Below the pieces are notes generated by a model, which saw only the letters and a list, made by a program, of their open reading frames with translations, was not told where the DNA came from and ran no database searches. 64,000 nucleotides of DNA from Candidatus Pacearchaeota archaeon (GTDB taxonomy: Archaea; Nanobdellota; Nanobdellia; Pacearchaeales; GW2011-AR1): assembly GCA_018303885.1 (NCBI GenBank), contig JAGVXG010000009.1, positions 27,611 through 91,610 on the forward strand, in the 5' to 3' direction. A program made the translations under genes and the position numbers. Below, one piece after another: positions 55,169 to 62,150 of the stretch; the stretch's first letter is position 1; the number at the start of each line of letters is the position of its first letter.

Positions 55169-56794
55169 TTATTCAAAATCCAAAATTTTTATCGCTCCTG
55201 TTTTAAGATTTACCATAGGTACTTTGCAAAAATCAGGTGTATTTCCTTTTCGCTTTTGATATTCTGTTTCTTCCTCCCACCCACTAACAGAAATCACAAG
55301 TACATTATTGTAATAAGAAACAGCACATTTATGAGTGTGTCCAGAAACAAAAATATCCGGTACTTTTTTTATTACAAGCTCGTCTTTTTCAGATGGAAAA
55401 GCCTGAACAGAGGAATAAGTCGGGGCTAAATGCCTATTTTTCAAAAGGTAGGACATTACTTTTTCAGGGGAATTAAGGCCTTCAGAAACGAGGCTTGGAA
55501 CAACATTTGCATAGTAAGGGTATGAAAATCCATGATAAGTTAAAACATCAAATCCTGAAAAATCCTTTCCAGAAGCAATGTTGACGTATGAAGGATTTCC
55601 CGTCAATATGACGTTTTTGAGGTTGTAAAGGGGCCAGGAATATTTTTCATCTAATGCTGGCTGCGGTTCTAAAAGTCTGACCCCATCATGATTTCCGGGA
55701 GAAATAATAATTTTAATGTCTTTTTTTATTCTTCCAATAAGTTCGGCAAAACCACGAAATTGTTCTTCTAAATCATCTATCTTAAGATCTTTTTTCTGAG
55801 AAGGATAAACACCAACACCAGAAACAAGATCTCCGACAATAAAAATGTATTTTATTTTATCGGCTTCTTTAGAATTTGGAACTTTTCCATTAACGTAATT
55901 TATAAATCTGAGAAAATTTTCTTCCATGAATACGTTGCTTCCATAATGAATATCACCTATAAACAAAGCATATTCTTCGGCGGGGGCTTTTTTTCTTTCT
56001 GGGTTCACGGCGCCTGGAAAAACAATATTGCTGGCAAAAAGAATTTCCCTGTCTCCATTTCCGCTAAATCCAATAATAGAATCCAAAGCAACTTCTTCTG
56101 CTTTCTTATACAATTCTGGTTTGTTTTGATTTATTAATACTTTTGTCCTTCCTGTTGAATCTTCGACGCTAAAGATAATATTCCTATTCTTAGTAACTCT
56201 CTTTTCAAATACCATCCCGATTATGGAAAACTTTTTACCTCCAGATAGTTTGTTAATCGAAACAAGATTCTCAAGCTCTGAGTGTTCCTGTAGGATATTT
56301 TTCATCTCAGCGAACCTGTTTCTAAGATTTTTAACAAAATCATCAACTTCTATTTTTTTCTTTGTTGAAATTGGCTTTAAAAGAACCTTAACGCTACTGT
56401 CTTCGTCTTGTTCTAAACTGTCGTCGCTCTGTGTTTCGTCTAATTGTTCTTCGCTATACTGCCTATCTTCTTTAGCTTGGCTAATTGAAGGTATCTCGGA
56501 TTGAACTTGTGAAAGTCTTGAAATTTCAATTTGCAATCCTAGCTTGATTTTTAGTTTTTCTAGGCTCTTTTGGTTCTCCTTAGGCAATGTTAAAAAAAAC
56601 TCGGTTACCTGTTCTTTGTTTTGTTCAAATAAGCTTCTTGTTATAATTCTCTTTTGTGTATGGCTTTTTATTTTCTCTATAATAAGCTTAACAGACTCTG
56701 TATCGTCGACTATCTCATTAAATAAACTAAGAACATCCGGCTCTATTAGTAAGCCGCGTTCAATACAAAACTTAAGGATTTCTTTTTCATCCAT
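55169..56794 (-). CDS. polB: DNA polymerase II (PolD) small subunit DP1
   Basis: OB domain plus calcineurin-like phosphoesterase motifs: FIGDIHYGS, VGDLVSGVG, SPGNHD, SGHTH. Confidence 0.9.
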   Translation of the reverse strand: MDEKEILKFCIERGLLIEPDVLSLFNEIVDDTESVKLIIEKIKSHTQKRIITRSLFEQNKEQVTEFFLTLPKENQKSLEKLKIKLGLQIEISRLSQVQSEIPSISQAKEDRQYSEEQLDETQSDDSLEQDEDSSVKVLLKPISTKKKIEVDDFVKNLRNRFAEMKNILQEHSELENLVSINKLSGGKKFSIIGMVFEKRVTKNRNIIFSVEDSTGRTKVLINQNKPELYKKAEEVALDSIIGFSGNGDREILFASNIVFPGAVNPERKKAPAEEYALFIGDIHYGSNVFMEENFLRFINYVNGKVPNSKEADKIKYIFIVGDLVSGVGVYPSQKKDLKIDDLEEQFRGFAELIGRIKKDIKIIISPGNHDGVRLLEPQPALDEKYSWPLYNLKNVILTGNPSYVNIASGKDFSGFDVLTYHGFSYPYYANVVPSLVSEGLNSPEKVMSYLLKNRHLAPTYSSVQAFPSEKDELVIKKVPDIFVSGHTHKCAVSYYNNVLVISVSGWEEETEYQKRKGNTPDFCKVPMVNLKTGAIKILDFE

Positions 56795-56813: not shown

Positions 56814-58019
56814 TTAATTTAAAGATTCTTCAATTATTTTTTTTGCTTTTTCAACAATACTTTTGGCGATTGCGAGTTTTATTTCTCTCATTCGCCCACC
56901 GCGCCCCTTTGAAATAACTCTCACATTAATAATTCCAAGCATGTCAAATTCTTGTATAATATCTGAAACTCTTCTTTGTGTAAGGATGTCTGACTTATTT
57001 TTTAGGCAAACTTCTTGGTAGTGATTATAGACGTCGCCGGTAAAAATTGGCGTTCCATTATTTTTTTCACTTAAGCTGATAATTGAATGAAGGACATATT
57101 GAAACTGTTTTGGCTCTGTTTTTATTACATCGAGAATCTTGTCTCTTTCAATCTTGGTATTTGCCTCGTCTATATGCTTCAATAAGATTTTTTTTGAGTT
57201 GTCTCTCTCAGCAAGCTCTCCTGCTATTCTCAAAAGGTCCAATGCCCGGCGAGCGTCTCCGTGTTCTCTAGCTGCAAAGGCAGCGCACTTTTGTACAACC
57301 CCCTCCTGAACAACCCCTTCTTTAAACGCGGCCCCAGATCTCTTATTCAAAATTTCCTGGAGTTGTATCGCGTTATAGGGGGGAAAAACAATTTCTTCTT
57401 CTGATAAAGAACTTCTGACTCTTGGGTCAAGCCCATCTAAAAAAGTTAAATCGTTGCTTATTCCGACGAGACATATCTGTGTTTTGGACAGCTCAGAATT
57501 TAATCTAGTAAGATTGTAAAGAAAGTCGCTTGATATTTTTTTTACTGCCTGGTCTATTTCATCTAGAATCAAAACTAAAGATTGTTTTTCAGAGTCAATT
57601 ATTTCTATAAATTTATTGTAAACAGATTCTGTAGGAAGCCCTGTGTTTGGAACTTCTCCTCCCATTTTTTTAATAAGCTCTGCAAGAATTCTATACTCTG
57701 TATCAGAAACTTTTTTCATTTTGCAGTTTAAGTACTCTATCCTCAAATTAAAGTCAACGTCTTTCTTTGCTCTTTTTAACAGTTCATCTCGAACATATAA
57801 TGCAGAAAGTGTTTTCCCGCTTCCGGTTTTCCCATAAAGGAATATGTTGCTTGTTTTGTCTCCTCTTAGTACGGGGGCTAACATCGATGCTATTTGTTTT
57901 ATCTGGTCTTCCCTATGAGGAATCTCTTCTGGCCTGTGGTTCGCCTGTAAAATTGATTTATTCTTGAAAATTCTATTTCCGTCAAAAGATTCAAAAATTT
58001 TGTCTAGTTCTGATCCCAT
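56814..58019 (-). CDS. cdc6: Orc1/Cdc6 replication initiator
   Basis: AAA+ Walker A LYGKTGSGKT and Walker B LILDEID. C-terminal winged helix. Adjacent to ORB-like repeats. Confidence 0.9.
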   Translation of the reverse strand: MGSELDKIFESFDGNRIFKNKSILQANHRPEEIPHREDQIKQIASMLAPVLRGDKTSNIFLYGKTGSGKTLSALYVRDELLKRAKKDVDFNLRIEYLNCKMKKVSDTEYRILAELIKKMGGEVPNTGLPTESVYNKFIEIIDSEKQSLVLILDEIDQAVKKISSDFLYNLTRLNSELSKTQICLVGISNDLTFLDGLDPRVRSSLSEEEIVFPPYNAIQLQEILNKRSGAAFKEGVVQEGVVQKCAAFAAREHGDARRALDLLRIAGELAERDNSKKILLKHIDEANTKIERDKILDVIKTEPKQFQYVLHSIISLSEKNNGTPIFTGDVYNHYQEVCLKNKSDILTQRRVSDIIQEFDMLGIINVRVISKGRGGRMREIKLAIAKSIVEKAKKIIEESLN

Positions 58020-58058
58020 ATTAAATTGTAAATTTCTATTGTTTAACTCACACGTTTA

Positions 58059-58074
58059 TTTCCTGTGGAAAATG
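58059..58074. promoter_or_regulatory. mini-ORB-like element TTTCCTGTGGAAAATG
   Basis: Resembles the archaeal mini-ORB core (TTCCAnnGGAAA) and lies 40 nt from the cdc6 start. Two related GGAAAA-containing units sit at 58155-58172 and 58200-58216. Confidence 0.5.
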
Positions 58075-58159
58075 TTTTTTTCCGGGAAATATTATCGGTA
58101 AAACTTTTGTTTTATTATAAACACTTATAACCACTAAGAAAGAAAGACACCTTAATTTC

Positions 58160-58242
58160 TGATGGAAAATAGCCCGCTTTAATTGAATTTGGTCTGAAGT
58201 CTTTGACGGAAAACAGCTTGTTTTAATTGAATTTGGTCTGAA
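58160..58242. repeat. two 39-bp direct repeats (ORB-like), 44-bp period
   Basis: TGATGGAAAATAGCCCGCTTTAATTGAATTTGGTCTGAA (58160-58198) versus TGACGGAAAACAGCTTGTTTTAATTGAATTTGGTCTGAA (58204-58242). The 3' 20 nt are identical. Confidence 0.8.
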
Positions 58243-58439
58243 ATTTTAATATCTCTGACATTTTATTTGTATTCGGGGCTATATTATTTCTGTCTAAAAT
58301 AGGCATCTGTTTTTATTGTAAATTTTATTAAAATTTATGTTAATTTTGAAAGGACACGCATATTCTAAGGGGGTGTAGATAGATAGTAAATTAAAAAATT
58401 ATAAGTTGAGCTAAAAAGCAAATAGTTTAAATTAAATTT

Positions 58440-58680
58440 TGTTTGGTTTAAGTTAAAGGAATAAATTAAACTAAAAAGTAAGGAATAAAAAAGAGTATAT
58501 AGAAAGGATGTATAATTTTAAGTAACCTATAAAAAATAAATGTATCTATATCTATATCTATATTGTATAATACAAACATATATACTATATAATATAAATT
58601 TTTATAAAATAATAATATAAATAAAAAAATTAAAAAATTCTTTATAAATCTTTCCATGAGAAACAAGGGGGAGAGGGAGT
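58440..58680. other. near-pure A/T stretch, candidate duplex unwinding element of oriC
   Basis: About 240 bp almost devoid of G/C, with TATA/ATAT runs (tatctatatctatatctatattgtataatac...). It lies between cdc6 and the divergently oriented genes. Confidence 0.55.
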
Positions 58681-58907: not shown

Positions 58908-59168
58908 ATGGCTGGAGACAAAAACCCCTTTAGCGCGATTGTCGCGAAGATGATAGTCACAAAAGAGGGAAAAAGGCTTGGTTTTGTTCGAGACGTTACA
59001 TTTGAAACAAAATCAGGAGAACTAATAAGCATAGTGTTAAAAGATCCAACACCATATACAAAAAATCTTAACTTAGAAAGAACTTCTTCAAACGAGCTTC
59101 TTGTTCCATATAGCTCAATAATAGCCATAGGAGACTTTGTCATCGTCTCTGAAGAAGACCTAGTTTAA
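58908..59168 (+). CDS. PRC-barrel domain protein (86 aa)
   Basis: KMIVTKEGKRLGFVRDVTFETKSGELISIVL...LLVPYSSIIAIGDFVIVSE is a PRC-barrel pattern, as in 35031-35318. Confidence 0.6.
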   Translation: MAGDKNPFSAIVAKMIVTKEGKRLGFVRDVTFETKSGELISIVLKDPTPYTKNLNLERTSSNELLVPYSSIIAIGDFVIVSEEDLV

Positions 59169-59277: not shown

Positions 59278-59685
59278 ATGAAAGTCATTGGTTTTAATTT
59301 TACTAAGTTGAGCGCAGAAAGGTTAAAAGAAACTGTAGAGGATATAAAAATCAACACAGAATTAGACTTCCCCGAAATCAAAGAAACAAAATCACCTTTC
59401 TTAAAGATTAAAGAGGAGCTCCTCGAAGCCAAGTTTGAATACAAAGTAAACTACGAGCCAGGCCTAGCAAAGGTTGTAATTCAGGGGAAGGTACTCTTTT
59501 CTGTCGACGAAAAAACAGCGAACGAAGTTCTTAAACAATGGAAGAAGAAAAACCTACCAGAAGATTTTAGAATACTTTTAGTTAATGTTGTCATGAGAAA
59601 GTCGGCCTTAAAGGCTTTAACACTTTGTGACGAGCTTAATCTTCCAGTTCATGTCCCTCTTCCCACACTAAGGAAAAATAAGTAA
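59278..59685 (+). CDS. hypothetical protein (135 aa)
   Basis: ATG-initiated ORF. No motif recognised. Confidence 0.45.
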   Translation: MKVIGFNFTKLSAERLKETVEDIKINTELDFPEIKETKSPFLKIKEELLEAKFEYKVNYEPGLAKVVIQGKVLFSVDEKTANEVLKQWKKKNLPEDFRILLVNVVMRKSALKALTLCDELNLPVHVPLPTLRKNK

Positions 59686-60117: not shown

Positions 60118-60957
<840 letters not shown>

Positions 60958-61197: not shown

Positions 61198-61869
61198 TCA
61201 CTTTTCCTCTGAATTTTTGTCCCTTCTAACTCTCACTTTCTGTCTTTTGAGGAGTTTTTCCTTCATATTTTCAGGTATAAACACCCTCTTTTTCCCATTT
61301 TTCTCTACTGCCTCCTCTATCAAGCCCTCACTCTTCTGTTTTATCCTATTTAAATGTCCCCTGATGGTTGATCTCTCCTTTCCAACAATGGCCGCAAGAT
61401 CATCATAACTTAGTTTCATATCCGAATTTAAAAGAATCCAAATAATAGCTCTTTCTGTTACTGAAAATTTATCTAAATTTGGTGTTTGAACACCTGTTTG
61501 AACACCTGTTTGAACACCTGTTTGAACAGCATAAACACCTGTTTGTTTATCAAACACCTGTTTGGTTGTTCTAAACGGCCTGTTTGGTTTTAGATCACTC
61601 ATTATGGAAATGACATTTTTTATTCCTTCAATTTCAGAATTTATCGTCGACAAAACGTCTTTTATCTCATTTATCTCTTTTCCTTGTAATTTTTTTTCAG
61701 AATCAAGGTGTTTGATCCATGCACTCATAGATGTTATATCTTTTTTAACAGATTCAAAACCCCTTTTGGTGTCTTCTTTAAGGCTATCAACACCCCTTTT
61801 ACCAAATAACCATTCAAACATATTAAGTATTATATATTCTAATTTAAAAATCTTTTCCTTTTTCGTCAA
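61198..61869 (-). CDS. coiled-coil / repeat / C-terminal wHTH protein (223 aa), same architecture as 60118-60957
   Basis: N-terminal coiled coil, QTGVQTGVQTGVQT repeat, and a C-terminal VTERAIIWILLNSD...LSYDDLAAIVGKERSTIRGHLNRIKQK wHTH. The start may be the internal Met (MFEWLFG) at 61821. Confidence 0.55.
   Translation of the reverse strand: MTKKEKIFKLEYIILNMFEWLFGKRGVDSLKEDTKRGFESVKKDITSMSAWIKHLDSEKKLQGKEINEIKDVLSTINSEIEGIKNVISIMSDLKPNRPFRTTKQVFDKQTGVYAVQTGVQTGVQTGVQTPNLDKFSVTERAIIWILLNSDMKLSYDDLAAIVGKERSTIRGHLNRIKQKSEGLIEEAVEKNGKKRVFIPENMKEKLLKRQKVRVRRDKNSEEK
61482..61588. repeat. seven copies of CACCTGTTTG(A/G/T) (four tandem at a 12-nt period, three dispersed) inside the coding region
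   Basis: ggtgtttgaaca / cacctgtttgaa x3 (61491-61526), then cacctgtttgtt (61536), cacctgtttggt (61555) and cctgtttggt (61579). Two more copies lie upstream of the gene at 61985-62006. Confidence 0.85.
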
Positions 61870-62150
61870 TAAAAAACCAAACTCTTTAGTTTAAAACAGA
61901 TATTTATTCCAAAAAATTTTCCGGAGAAAACACAAAAAACCAGCAAAAAATCAGAAAAATCCTCTATAAAAACACGCCAAACAGCCTGTTTAAACACCTG
62001 TTTGGTTAAATAAACACCCAAAAATAAATTATAACGACTATGCACAAAGCCTACCTAAGTGCACAACCTTCCCCCAACAATAAAAAAATACAAATTTTTT
62101 AGCGTCAATTTTTTGTCTGCAACCACAAAAGAATAAAAAATAAAACAAAA

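Follow-up and report, generated by a model that had tools for sequence, protein, structure and literature searches.

A candidate self-recognition array of palindromic DNA sites in the linker-coding region of an origin-proximal archaeal winged-helix gene

The window, by which we mean the whole stretch of 64,000 nucleotides (64 kb) analysed here from a Candidatus Pacearchaeota archaeon, contains an orc1/cdc6 gene (56814-58019, minus strand) next to genes for the PolD small subunit, a class I tRNA synthetase, a GTPase and tRNAs. Beside orc1/cdc6 lies a canonical oriC (58040-58680, no strand assigned), with origin recognition boxes (ORBs) at 58059-71 and 58156-68 on the minus strand and at 58651-72 on the plus strand, the last with a G-string. 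Between these ORBs, in the spacer separating orc1 from a PRC-barrel gene, is the only stretch of about 90% AT (58520-58640). When loci are averaged, it is in this PRC-orc1 intergenic region that GC content is lowest and the skew changes. The GC/AT skew averaged over 80 oriented loci mostly reflects which way the genes point, and supports no origin other than the canonical oriC in the orc1-PRC spacer. The cluster runs orc1, oriC, PRC-barrel, p135, w88, w279 and gene X, an order that is kept in almost all of the 80 other species compared and partly in a divergent clade. The X locus is chromosomal and lies about 3 kb from oriC and orc1. A first-pass annotation had taken this DNA for a putative mobile element, a view contradicted by the nearby orc1/cdc6, PolD small subunit and tRNA synthetase genes and by synteny on contigs of up to 623 kb; a scan of viral contigs found no relatives. 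Searches of Pfam and NCBIfam detected no NTPase domain in the PRC-barrel, p135, w88, w279 and X proteins, which gave PRC-barrel or weak HTH matches only, and none for p135; X, w279, w88 and p135 matched no family above threshold.

Gene X (61198-61821, minus strand), described here from its homologues, an AlphaFold model and fold matches, encodes a protein of 207 aa, and DPANN MAGs contain more than 3125 homologues of it. Its true start is almost certainly the ATG at 61821 rather than the TTG at 61869, because homologues start at MFxW and a conserved BRE/TATA block lies 22-29 nt upstream. This archaeal promoter-like block, GGAAAAG-ATTTTTAAA (61843-61858, minus strand, about -22 to -38 from ATG 61821), recurs as GAAAAGATTTTTAAA at the same distance from the ATG across 80 loci, and is the probable promoter of X. 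The mRNA would by implication be leaderless or carry a short leader, and would exclude the upstream boxes described below. In the AlphaFold model, X consists of a coiled-coil helix (residues 9-77), a linker (about 82-113), a winged helix-turn-helix (wHTH) domain (121-191) and then a basic tail. The wHTH domain is modelled with a pLDDT of 86-92, and the linker at residues 82-113 has a pLDDT below 50 and is predicted to be disordered. Foldseek matched the wHTH to structures of MepR, MarR, AbfR2 and SlyA over about 85 residues (E 1e-4 to 3e-3), and as modelled the domain is MarR-like, with the fold of MarR-type regulators; sub-threshold sequence matches of X were to HTH_11, HTH_29 and HTH_5 in Pfam, with weak sigma, MsvR and Sta1 matches in NCBIfam. 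MarR-type proteins are dimers that bind palindromes.

The DNA that codes for the linker of X contains an array of short repeats (61480-61586, no strand assigned), and the repeats coincide with the segment predicted to be disordered. The first-pass annotation had counted nine copies in the same orientation, seven of them inside the ORF and including an exact 12-nt tandem, with inverted arms in the core, and each of these features was recovered. All nine share the plus-strand core STGTTTR, which occurs seven times in the ORF (61482, 61494, 61506, 61518, 61539, 61558 and 61580) and twice upstream of the gene (61986 and 61998). Six are exact copies of the 10-mer CACCTGTTTG, all on the plus strand (61491, 61503, 61515, 61536, 61555 and 61995), and three are degenerate versions of it (GGTGTTTGAA, GGCCTGTTTG and AGCCTGTTTA). 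No further exact copy occurs elsewhere in the 64 kb window, and with one mismatch allowed there were 11 matches against 2.6 expected, a number reached in none of 100 shuffles; enrichment over a shuffled background was one of the conditions that the annotation had set for its reading. TRF reported a perfect tandem of 12 nt at 61483-61528 (3.8 copies, 100% match), which read on the minus strand gives the peptide VQTGVQTGVQTGVQT. The unit of the array is the palindrome AACA-SS-TGTT, and the proposed search for the motif elsewhere found this palindromic core at the present locus alone, with six occurrences of AACASSTGTT in the window against 0.2 expected. The array is real and exceeds chance expectation. 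Within the coding sequence, five to seven boxes, hereafter X-boxes, are spaced 12, 19 and 21 nt apart and so form multiple direct repeats of the kind found in iterons. They comprise 10-mers of AACACCTGTT at 61489-98, 61501-10 and 61513-22 (the 12-nt tandem), 61534-43 and 61553-62, an 11-nt variant AACGGCCTGTT at 61574-84 and a terminal half-site GGTGTTTGA at 61480-88. The DNA scanned for the box amounted to about 64 kb of this genome and ±6 kb in 80 other genomes, and further targets may lie elsewhere in these genomes.

A second cluster of X-boxes lies upstream of the gene (61978-62019, no strand assigned, about 160-200 nt before ATG 61821), and consists of an 11-nt perfect palindrome AACAGCCTGTT (AACAG-C-CTGTT, 61980-61990), a 10-mer AACACCTGTT (61993-62002) and a half-site TAAACACCC (62011-19). 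The two upstream copies originally described are therefore present, but they lie at about -160 to -181 from ATG 61821 rather than at -120 to -135, because the start has been moved to that ATG. Homologous upstream clusters occur in nearly all of 80 loci, so that the sharing of a motif between the gene body and its own upstream region, first seen in this one DNA, is an arrangement kept in about 80 species. In the 500 nt upstream, the 10-mer is about 100-fold denser than elsewhere (2.4 versus 0.025 per kb), and the 11-mer has densities of 1.9 and 0.006 per kb in the same comparison. Upstream, 400 nt contain 5.9 half-sites, compared with 0.4, and their spacings peak at 10, 13, 20 and 30 nt. Relative to the ATG, boxes are located at -110 to -290 and at +258 to +340, with BRE/TATA at -22 to -38. 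Archaeal repressors usually act over the BRE, TATA or TSS, and the upstream boxes of X, in contrast to this typical mode of repression, overlap none of them. The upstream arrays travel with X irrespective of the gene located upstream, and asymmetric versions of the box occur in both orientations.

Presence in homologous elements had been a further expectation, and the same boxes were found in the same place in the orthologous gene of 80 other Nanoarchaeota/Pacearchaeota species. In the 79 of these used for codon-level conservation, the consensus segment reads AAA CAG STG TTT ... AAA CAA ACA GST GTT TAT GCT GTT, and continues as CAA ACA GST GTT CAA ACA GST GTT CAA ACA CCA. Third codon positions are conserved at 0.93 in this box segment against 0.6-0.7 elsewhere (Mann-Whitney p = 1e-6). 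Codon choice in the segment is opposite to the local bias, with GGT used at 0.88 inside the box region and 0.32 outside it, GCT at 0.94 and 0.36, ACA at 0.91 and 0.52, and CTG at 0.33 and 0.06. The box word is read in three frames, as AAC AGG GTG TTT, AAA CAG STG TTT and CAA ACA GST GTT, giving the peptides NRVF, KQ[VL]F and QT[GAP]V. The sole frequent change in the box is non-synonymous, an exchange of Gly, Ala and Pro (GG/GC/CC) at the palindrome centre, and this variable residue is encoded by GGT/GCT/CCT in 99% of cases. Such freezing of synonymous sites, together with the use of three reading frames, shows that the motif is selected as DNA, apart from the peptide. An overlapping ORF as the source of synonymous constraint was rejected, as no other ORF, in any frame or on either strand, covers 61480-61586. 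The number of 12-nt units is four in the window and in P0002, three in the otherwise identical P0001 and two in P0065. Expansion and contraction of the 12-mer in frame, as had been envisaged, is therefore seen among alleles, but exactly three units are present in 117 of 120 homologues, and the idea of a hypervariable, phase-variable contingency repeat was rejected on these counts.

In a divergent subfamily, the recognition helix of X is VTVRRHINDIKK in place of STIRGHLNRIKQK, and the linker palindrome is TGAACGTTCA/CGTTCA, again in three frames. In this subfamily, TGAACGTTCA-type motifs are found 15 times per kb within the gene, 2.2 times per kb in the upstream DNA and 0.09 times per kb outside these regions. 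The switch of motif appears to follow the recognition helix of X, a correlation between protein and DNA sequences. As in autoregulatory operators, the palindromes are tied to a regulator gene and conserved with it. Upstream copies are present in only 5 of 23 divergent loci, and so promoter-proximal control is not universal.

The convergent neighbour w279 (60118-60957, plus strand, 279 aa), described from HTH matches, alignment and synteny, has the same architecture of coiled coil, linker and wHTH as X, and is found beside it in 79 of 80 loci. The N-terminal helices of the two proteins are homologous (hhalign probability 87%, E 3.7e-6); BLASTP detected no direct sequence similarity between X and w279, and the profile-profile match is limited to this N-terminal helix. 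The DNA coding for the w279 linker contains a consensus ORB, TCCAGTGGAAACGAAGGGGT (60394-60413, plus strand, peptide AFSSGNEGV), followed by (ACAG)x9 (60418-60452, plus strand, peptide TDRQTDRQTD). This ORB agrees at 20 of 20 positions with the 'Common' archaeal ORB motif of Ori-Finder 2, TCCA[CG]T[TG]GAAA[TC][GA]AAGGGGT (PMC4164010). A regex search found an ORB in the w279 region at 72 of 81 loci (80 species and the window), most of which have it as a linker element followed by ACAG-type repeats; locus L045 is an exception, where the regex first hits another ORB, with cttcgacacacc after it. The repeat after the ORB resembles the X half-site of its own clade, being (ACAG)n in the main clade and (AATC)n/CAATCA in three divergent loci. 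The 279-aa protein had been put forward as a second box binder, but w279 does not fit this role in any simple form, as it carries a different embedded element, the consensus ORB. A clear ORB between the X-boxes and the X promoter occurs in about 10 of 81 loci, the window not among them, and an ORB upstream of X was therefore rejected as a universal feature. The X-box as an ORB variant was also rejected, AACASSTGTT being unlike the published ORB motifs (TCCA..GAAA..GGGGT). No stretch of about 90% AT adjoins either X-box array in the manner of the unwinding element next to iterons.

Our preferred explanation, held tentatively and at somewhat short of even confidence, is that the repeats are predicted double-stranded DNA sites for a dimeric winged-helix protein, and that they form a self-recognition array, autoregulatory or origin-associated. 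In the full X-box, the palindrome would be AAACAG|CTGTTT, its S-S centre being free to vary, and STGTTTR would be the half-site. The candidate binder is most probably the product of the box-containing gene X, whose boxes would be placed in a disordered linker where protein sequence hardly matters. With a second cluster about 160-290 nt upstream and half-sites at 10 bp phasing, oligomers of X formed via the coiled coil may load cooperatively on both arrays, which are about 470 bp apart and would flank the stretch that holds the promoter and the gene's 5' half. The X complex could then limit its own transcription in a negative feedback, by looping and/or a roadblock to elongation, and could mark a fixed site about 3 kb from oriC. 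The original suggestion of iterons or of an autoregulatory function is reasonable given DNA-level selection and the sharing of the motif between gene and upstream region, but the boxes neither match an ORB nor adjoin an AT-rich element. Something more than simple feedback is suggested by how deeply the array is conserved, by its place near the origin and by the ORB in the paralogue's linker. More speculatively, and with considerable doubt on our part, the Nanoarchaeota (Pace- and Woesearchaeales) may possess a lineage-specific origin-proximal module in which the paralogues X and w279 hold cis elements in their own linkers, X acting with Orc1 as an accessory initiator, origin-organising or segregation factor, with co-evolution of protein and site. 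Such a module would be a cellular counterpart of lambda O/ori-lambda, with X-box iterons in X and an ORB and X-like half-site repeats in w279.

Several other explanations need to be weighed against a self-recognition array. Slippage of the 12-nt unit, and the standing of CAA, ACA and GTT as the commonest codons in these AT-rich genomes, would suit an ordinary low-complexity QTGV peptide repeat, due to protein function or slippage, with the identity of the DNA following from codon bias. However, codon bias accounts neither for the near-exclusive GGT/GCT/CCT at the variable residue nor for the rare CAG/GTG/CTG codons of the KQ[VL]F copy, the three-frame word and the non-coding upstream copies are left unexplained, and free variation is seen at the very residue that the palindrome centre encodes. 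The analysis of synonymous sites and frames effectively refutes this reading, to which we attach almost no credence. We also regard as very unlikely a constraint at the level of RNA, with the palindromes acting, between the halves of the mRNA that code for the two domains, as hairpins or as a platform for protein or sRNA, for example in ribosome pausing or mRNA stability. An 87-nt segment does fold far more stably than its shuffles (mean MFE -21.7 kcal/mol, mean z -3.5), but in single sequences palindromes give such stability as a by-product. The consensus fold is weak (alifold -2.35 kcal/mol), yet lies below all 100 column-shuffled alignments (mean -0.10, minimum -1.98), and given this result a weak structural RNA signal is possible. 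Hairpins would not explain why the GG/GC/CC centres lack a compensatory pattern, GG/GG being the commonest combination, why boxes and phased half-sites are also found upstream of BRE/TATA and thus outside the predicted transcript, or why asymmetric boxes are not confined to one orientation; a search of Rfam gave no matching family and two tRNAs only.

The boxes may instead be bound by another protein of the cluster (w279, w88 or Orc1) or by an unlinked factor, with X as the regulated target, although we consider this improbable. As wHTH proteins that are co-inherited with X in both clades and whose sequences diverge between the clades, w279 and w88 could be alternative candidate binders, and the w279 linker has repeats of the ACAG type. 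Against this, the motif switch tracks the recognition helix of X, if only as a correlation, and the boxes are always in or beside X; Orc1 is an unlikely binder, as its own ORB is present and distinct. The strongest of the rivals, though less likely than the preferred reading and well short of even odds, is that the arrays are primarily a platform for origin function or segregation, made of iterons or centromere-like sites together with Orc1 at the w279 ORB, with X as an accessory initiator, remodelling factor or centromere binder and autoregulation as secondary. Such a platform would be a cellular system analogous to lambda O/ori-lambda or to the parS site within spo0J, and is consistent with the conserved order from orc1 to X, the exact consensus ORB in the w279 linker and its frequency across loci, the bona fide ORBs between X-boxes and X promoter in about ten species, the iteron-like direct half-site repeats at 10-bp phasing, and the occurrence of the box at no other locus in the scanned DNA. 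The array form and the origin-proximal position would also suit centromere-like sites with an adjacent gene for a putative binder. The resemblance of the w279 repeat to the X half-site of its clade points the same way, but its covariation is based on three loci. Further against such a platform, an AT-rich unwinding element stands beside neither array, the X-box matches no ORB consensus, the five scanned cluster proteins have no NTPase domain in Pfam or NCBIfam, and the viral contigs contained no relatives hinting at a replicon module.

Among known systems, the closest precedent for the self-recognition array that we prefer is the lambdoid phage ori in the O gene, a dyad-symmetric site array in the middle of the gene for its own DNA-binding protein. 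In lambdoid phages, the iteron sequence co-varies with initiator specificity. The number of sites alters protein length in lambdoid O, and likewise in X, which gains 4 aa per extra 12-nt unit; Stx phages, with 2 additional iterons, have an O protein longer by 13 aa (PMC7466680). The lambda array, which is part of a phage replicon, has 19-bp iterons, a proven initiator and an AT-rich unwinding region (DUE) beside it, whereas X is a single-copy chromosomal DPANN gene with boxes of 10-12 bp, without an adjacent DUE and with a separate Orc1/ORB origin 3 kb away. The parS site within spo0J/parB is an origin-proximal site in the gene of its binder, and the wHTH centromere binders TubR (on the 12-bp iterons of tubC) and AspA oligomerise on tandem short repeats. 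X resembles these systems in having origin-proximal tandem short repeats in or beside a winged-helix gene, to which its product is predicted to bind, but is not related to ParB, TubR or AspA by sequence or family, and Pfam and NCBIfam found no partition-type NTPase among the five scanned proteins of the cluster. E. coli purR and gal OI are examples of autoregulated repressors with intragenic operators, one or two in number. As in these, the X palindromes lie both upstream and in the transcribed region, and an oligomeric repressor could bridge the clusters; unlike these, X has five to seven tandem boxes, kept synonymous sites, three frames and conservation over phylum-level divergence. The archaeal ORB of Orc1/Cdc6 provides a comparison within the cluster itself, the w279 linker showing the same trick of a conserved site in linker-coding DNA. 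AACASSTGTT, the X-box, is distinct from the ORB, and literature word searches on the motifs and on DPANN origin papers gave no relevant match and no described archaeal motif like it.

The X locus would be a natural dual-use sequence, both coding and candidate protein-docking DNA, in which the best-conserved-looking peptide segment of the family appears to be kept for its DNA and not for its peptide. It offers a defined cis motif 3 kb from oriC, and with it a candidate trans factor, in DPANN archaea, whose chromosome biology has hardly been studied, and the divergent subfamily offers a second independent pair of motif and protein. The consensus ORB within the neighbouring coding sequence bears on the distribution of Orc1 sites around archaeal origins. 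For annotation, it is a warning that a linker which looks like conserved low-complexity sequence can in fact be an array of binding sites. Extra X-box matches 2-3.4 kb upstream in 12 loci encode the peptide KQLF (AAA CAG CTG TTT) in serine/tyrosine recombinases and HAD hydrolases, and were treated as coincidence.

Comparison across species indicates that the linker-coding DNA of gene X (61198-61821, minus strand), whose product joins a coiled coil to a MarR-like winged helix, is conserved as DNA and not as peptide. In an alignment of 79 species with protein identity of only 62-89%, it follows a near letter-for-letter consensus (AAA CAG STG TTT ... AAA CAA ACA GST GTT TAT GCT GTT CAA ACA GST GTT CAA ACA GST GTT CAA ACA CCA AAT), and third-codon-position identity peaks at 0.93 at the linker vs 0.6-0.7 in the rest of X (Mann-Whitney p = 1e-6). 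Codon choice in the linker region deviates from the usage of the gene itself, for GGT (0.88 inside vs 0.32 outside), GCT (0.94 vs 0.36), ACA (0.91 vs 0.52) and the rare CTG (0.33 vs 0.06). The X-box, a palindromic word AACA-SS-TGTT with half-site core STGTTTR, is read in three frames, as AAC AGG GTG TTT (NRVF), AAA CAG STG TTT (KQ[VL]F) and CAA ACA GST GTT (QT[GAP]V), and the sole freely varying position is the non-synonymous Gly/Ala/Pro choice, GG, GC or CC, at the centre of the box. No overlapping ORF covers the array region among the ORFs of the window. Peptide selection, codon bias and slippage were rejected as the source of this pattern, as they cannot yield a third-position freeze together with a three-frame word and a variable centre.

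Within the window, CACCTGTTTG occurs in six exact copies, all on the plus strand, five of them intragenic (61491-61564) and one upstream (61995); with one mismatch there are 11 matches vs 2.6 expected, a number equalled by no shuffle. The first-pass annotation had listed nine same-strand copies, seven inside the ORF and two upstream. All were found again, in that placement, with the core STGTTTR, but three of the nine are degenerate. The 12-nt tandem that it described is perfect at 61483-61528 (TRF), and the inverted arms of the core hold up, the palindromic AACASSTGTT occurring six times vs 0.2 expected and being absent from the rest of the 64 kb. Upstream, the copy at 61980-61990, AACAGCCTGTT, is perfectly palindromic over 11 nt. 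Since homologues of X begin at MFxW, which here falls at ATG 61821 and gives a product of 207 aa, and a GAAAAG-ATTTTTAAA block lies 22-29 nt 5' of the equivalent ATG in every species, we adopt this ATG as the translation start and infer that the promoter is of the leaderless type. In the AlphaFold model of X, residues 9-77 form a long helix, residues 82-113 are disordered (pLDDT <50) and residues 121-191 form a winged helix, for which the nearest solved folds in structure comparison are MarR-family dimers. More than 3125 homologues were found, in DPANN MAGs only (Nanoarchaeota, Pacearchaeota and Woesearchaeota) and on contigs reaching hundreds of kb; the family is narrow (187 clusters at 50% identity), and distant members retain both the architecture and VQT/KQ-type linker peptides.

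The earlier suggestion that the gene body and its own upstream region share the motif is borne out by enrichment across 80 loci, with the 10-mer at 2.4 per kb in the 500 nt upstream of X vs 0.025 elsewhere, a difference of about 100-fold. In most species an 11-nt palindrome, AACAG-N-CTGTT, is located near positions -155 to -171 (1.9 per kb upstream vs 0.006 elsewhere in the 80 loci), and the upstream 400 nt contain on average 5.9 half-sites STGTTT vs a background of 0.4. As the spacing of these half-sites peaks at 10, 13, 20 and 30 nt, they are helically phased direct repeats with a full palindrome at the end. The upstream arrays remain with X regardless of the divergent neighbour gene. The few X-box matches elsewhere were set aside, as there the DNA encodes the peptide KQLF in genes for recombinases and HAD hydrolases.

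In a divergent subfamily of X, represented by 53 metagenome loci, the recognition helix STIRGHLNRIKQK is replaced by VTVRRHINDIKK, and the linker, with peptides ERS, VQSFNRS and QSFMNVQ, holds a different palindrome, TGAACGTTCA (half-site CGTTCA), again in three frames (AAC GTT CAA, TCG TTC A.. and GAA CGT TCA). Within the gene its density is 15 per kb, compared with 2.2 upstream and 0.09 elsewhere; upstream copies are present in only 5 of 23 loci, and two loci (L091 and L100) carry tandem TGAACGTTCATGAACGTTCA about 120 nt 5' of the gene. Because this subfamily has both another recognition helix and another palindrome, the motif moves and changes along with gene X, and this co-change is the best evidence, albeit indirect, that X recognises its own boxes.

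The surroundings are chromosomal. The orc1/cdc6 gene (56814-58019) adjoins the PolD small subunit (55169-56794) in an arrangement like that of Thermococcales, and tRNAs and a tRNA synthetase also lie in the window. Beside orc1, the spacer at 58040-58680 is likely the canonical oriC, with three ORB-like elements (origin recognition boxes; 58059-71 and 58156-68, minus strand, and 58651-72, plus strand, with a G-string) flanking a stretch of about 90% AT (58520-58640), and a 44-nt direct repeat at 58160-58247. The order X, the convergent 279-aa wHTH gene w279, the wHTH gene w88, the gene for the 135-aa protein p135, a PRC-barrel gene, oriC and orc1 is retained in essentially all 80 species representatives, and no relatives were found in the viral collection; the premise of a mobile element was mistaken. 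Two members of this conserved origin-proximal cluster, the PRC-barrel protein (58908-59168) and the uncharacterised p135 (59278-59685), might, at a guess, be tied to cell division, as archaeal division elsewhere involves PRC-barrel proteins.

The w279 protein (gene 60118-60957, plus strand) has the same layout of coiled coil, linker and wHTH as X, and the N-terminal helices of the two proteins are homologous (hhalign probability 87%). The w279 linker contains TCCAGTGGAAACGAAGGGGT (60394-60413), which agrees at 20/20 positions with the archaeal ORB motif that Ori-Finder 2 names 'Common' (PMC4164010). It is followed by (ACAG)x9, giving the peptide TDRQTDRQTD, and the ORB and repeat together span 60394-60452. 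By regex, an ORB is found in the w279 region of 72 of 81 loci, in most with ACAG-type repeats after it, and about 10 species also carry a full ORB in the stretch from the X-boxes to the X promoter. Because a consensus ORB is also embedded in the linker of w279, the hiding of binding sites in linker-coding DNA appears to be a property of the origin-proximal cluster, beyond X alone. The repeat after the ORB differs at three loci of the divergent clade, being (AATC)n/CAATCA, which is like the X half-site of that clade and tentatively suggests that the repeat tracks the half-site. We note that TCCAGTGGAAACGAAGGGGT within the w279 coding sequence is an Orc1-type site about 1.7 kb from the unwinding region of oriC. 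The w279 linker also carries repeats CCAACACAT (60321-60352; peptides PTH/STH), similar to the tail ...GGGGCTTCGACACAT that follows ORBs upstream of X in other species.

These comparisons show the X-boxes, at the level of sequence, to be locus-specific, palindromic, arrayed DNA elements lying in protein-neutral coding DNA and upstream of it, and to covary with changes in the X HTH. An ordinary peptide repeat can in effect be dismissed, as the conservation sits in DNA, in three frames and in upstream copies. Our preferred reading, held with somewhat less than even confidence, is that X dimers bind the boxes, bridge both arrays, limit X transcription and mark a point near oriC. The coiled coil would support higher oligomers and cooperative loading, such oligomers could bridge the upstream and intragenic arrays about 470 bp apart, and the bridged complex would limit transcription by looping or roadblock while serving as a fixed landmark 3 kb from oriC. 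The chief rival, somewhat less probable, is a complex concerned mainly with the origin or segregation, iteron- or centromere-like, that works with Orc1 at the embedded ORB. The association with ORBs, the phylum-deep synteny with oriC and the confinement of the boxes to one locus favour it; against it, no unwinding element adjoins the arrays, and Pfam and NCBIfam give none of the five cluster proteins scanned an NTPase domain. That another cluster protein is the binder seems improbable. A constraint acting on RNA is more improbable still: although individual sequences fold stably, they share only a weak consensus structure and show no compensatory pattern, and box copies lie outside the inferred transcript.

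It had also been proposed that the tandem expands and contracts in frame. Slippage does occur, with four VQTx units in the window and in homologue P0002, three in the otherwise identical P0001 and two in P0065, but 117 of 120 homologues hold three units, and a contingency locus was rejected on this ground. Analogues of the X-box arrangement exist: parS sits inside spo0J, the TubR-tubC system has 12-bp iterons, and purR provides an example of an intragenic operator. The nearest design is the lambdoid origin in the O gene, where the coding sequence of the initiator contains, mid-gene, the iterons for that protein, which gains residues when iterons are added (PMC7466680). In contrast to these analogues, X is a conserved chromosomal DPANN gene, its boxes are short and maintained in three frames, no DNA unwinding element adjoins them, and a separate canonical Orc1/ORB origin lies close by. 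No paper on the X-box motif or the X family was found in the literature searched.

Other nucleotide-level features accompany the gene. Codons 195-198 of X (61228-61239), AAA GTG AGA GTT (KVRV), hardly vary at synonymous sites (among species with Val at these codons, 100% use GTG at the first and 94% use GTT at the second), and this segment near the 3' end is possibly a further embedded DNA or RNA element. A CpG-bearing word, TCGWCG, lies directly 5' of the X BRE/TATA in most species (TCGTCGAAAAAGAAAAGATTTTTAAA; X promoters of L001-L080). It is found again halfway along the upstream spacer and, as TTA TCG TCG ATA, within the coding sequence (61644-61650, codons 57-60), where the rare codon TCG has a usage of 0.93-0.97. 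The word, which is similar to the CAATCGTTCA half-site of the divergent subfamily, is possibly a second element of this gene at the nucleotide level. A conserved inverted repeat, GTGCAC(T/A)(T/A)AGG-N5-CTTAGT (62041-62070), which might act as another operator or form a hairpin in the 5' UTR, is located, with unchanging orientation, between the cluster of X-boxes and the divergent gene for a membrane protein. It has 76 matches over 81 loci, and in L001-L080 its distance from X is roughly -230 to -400 or -700 to -1100.
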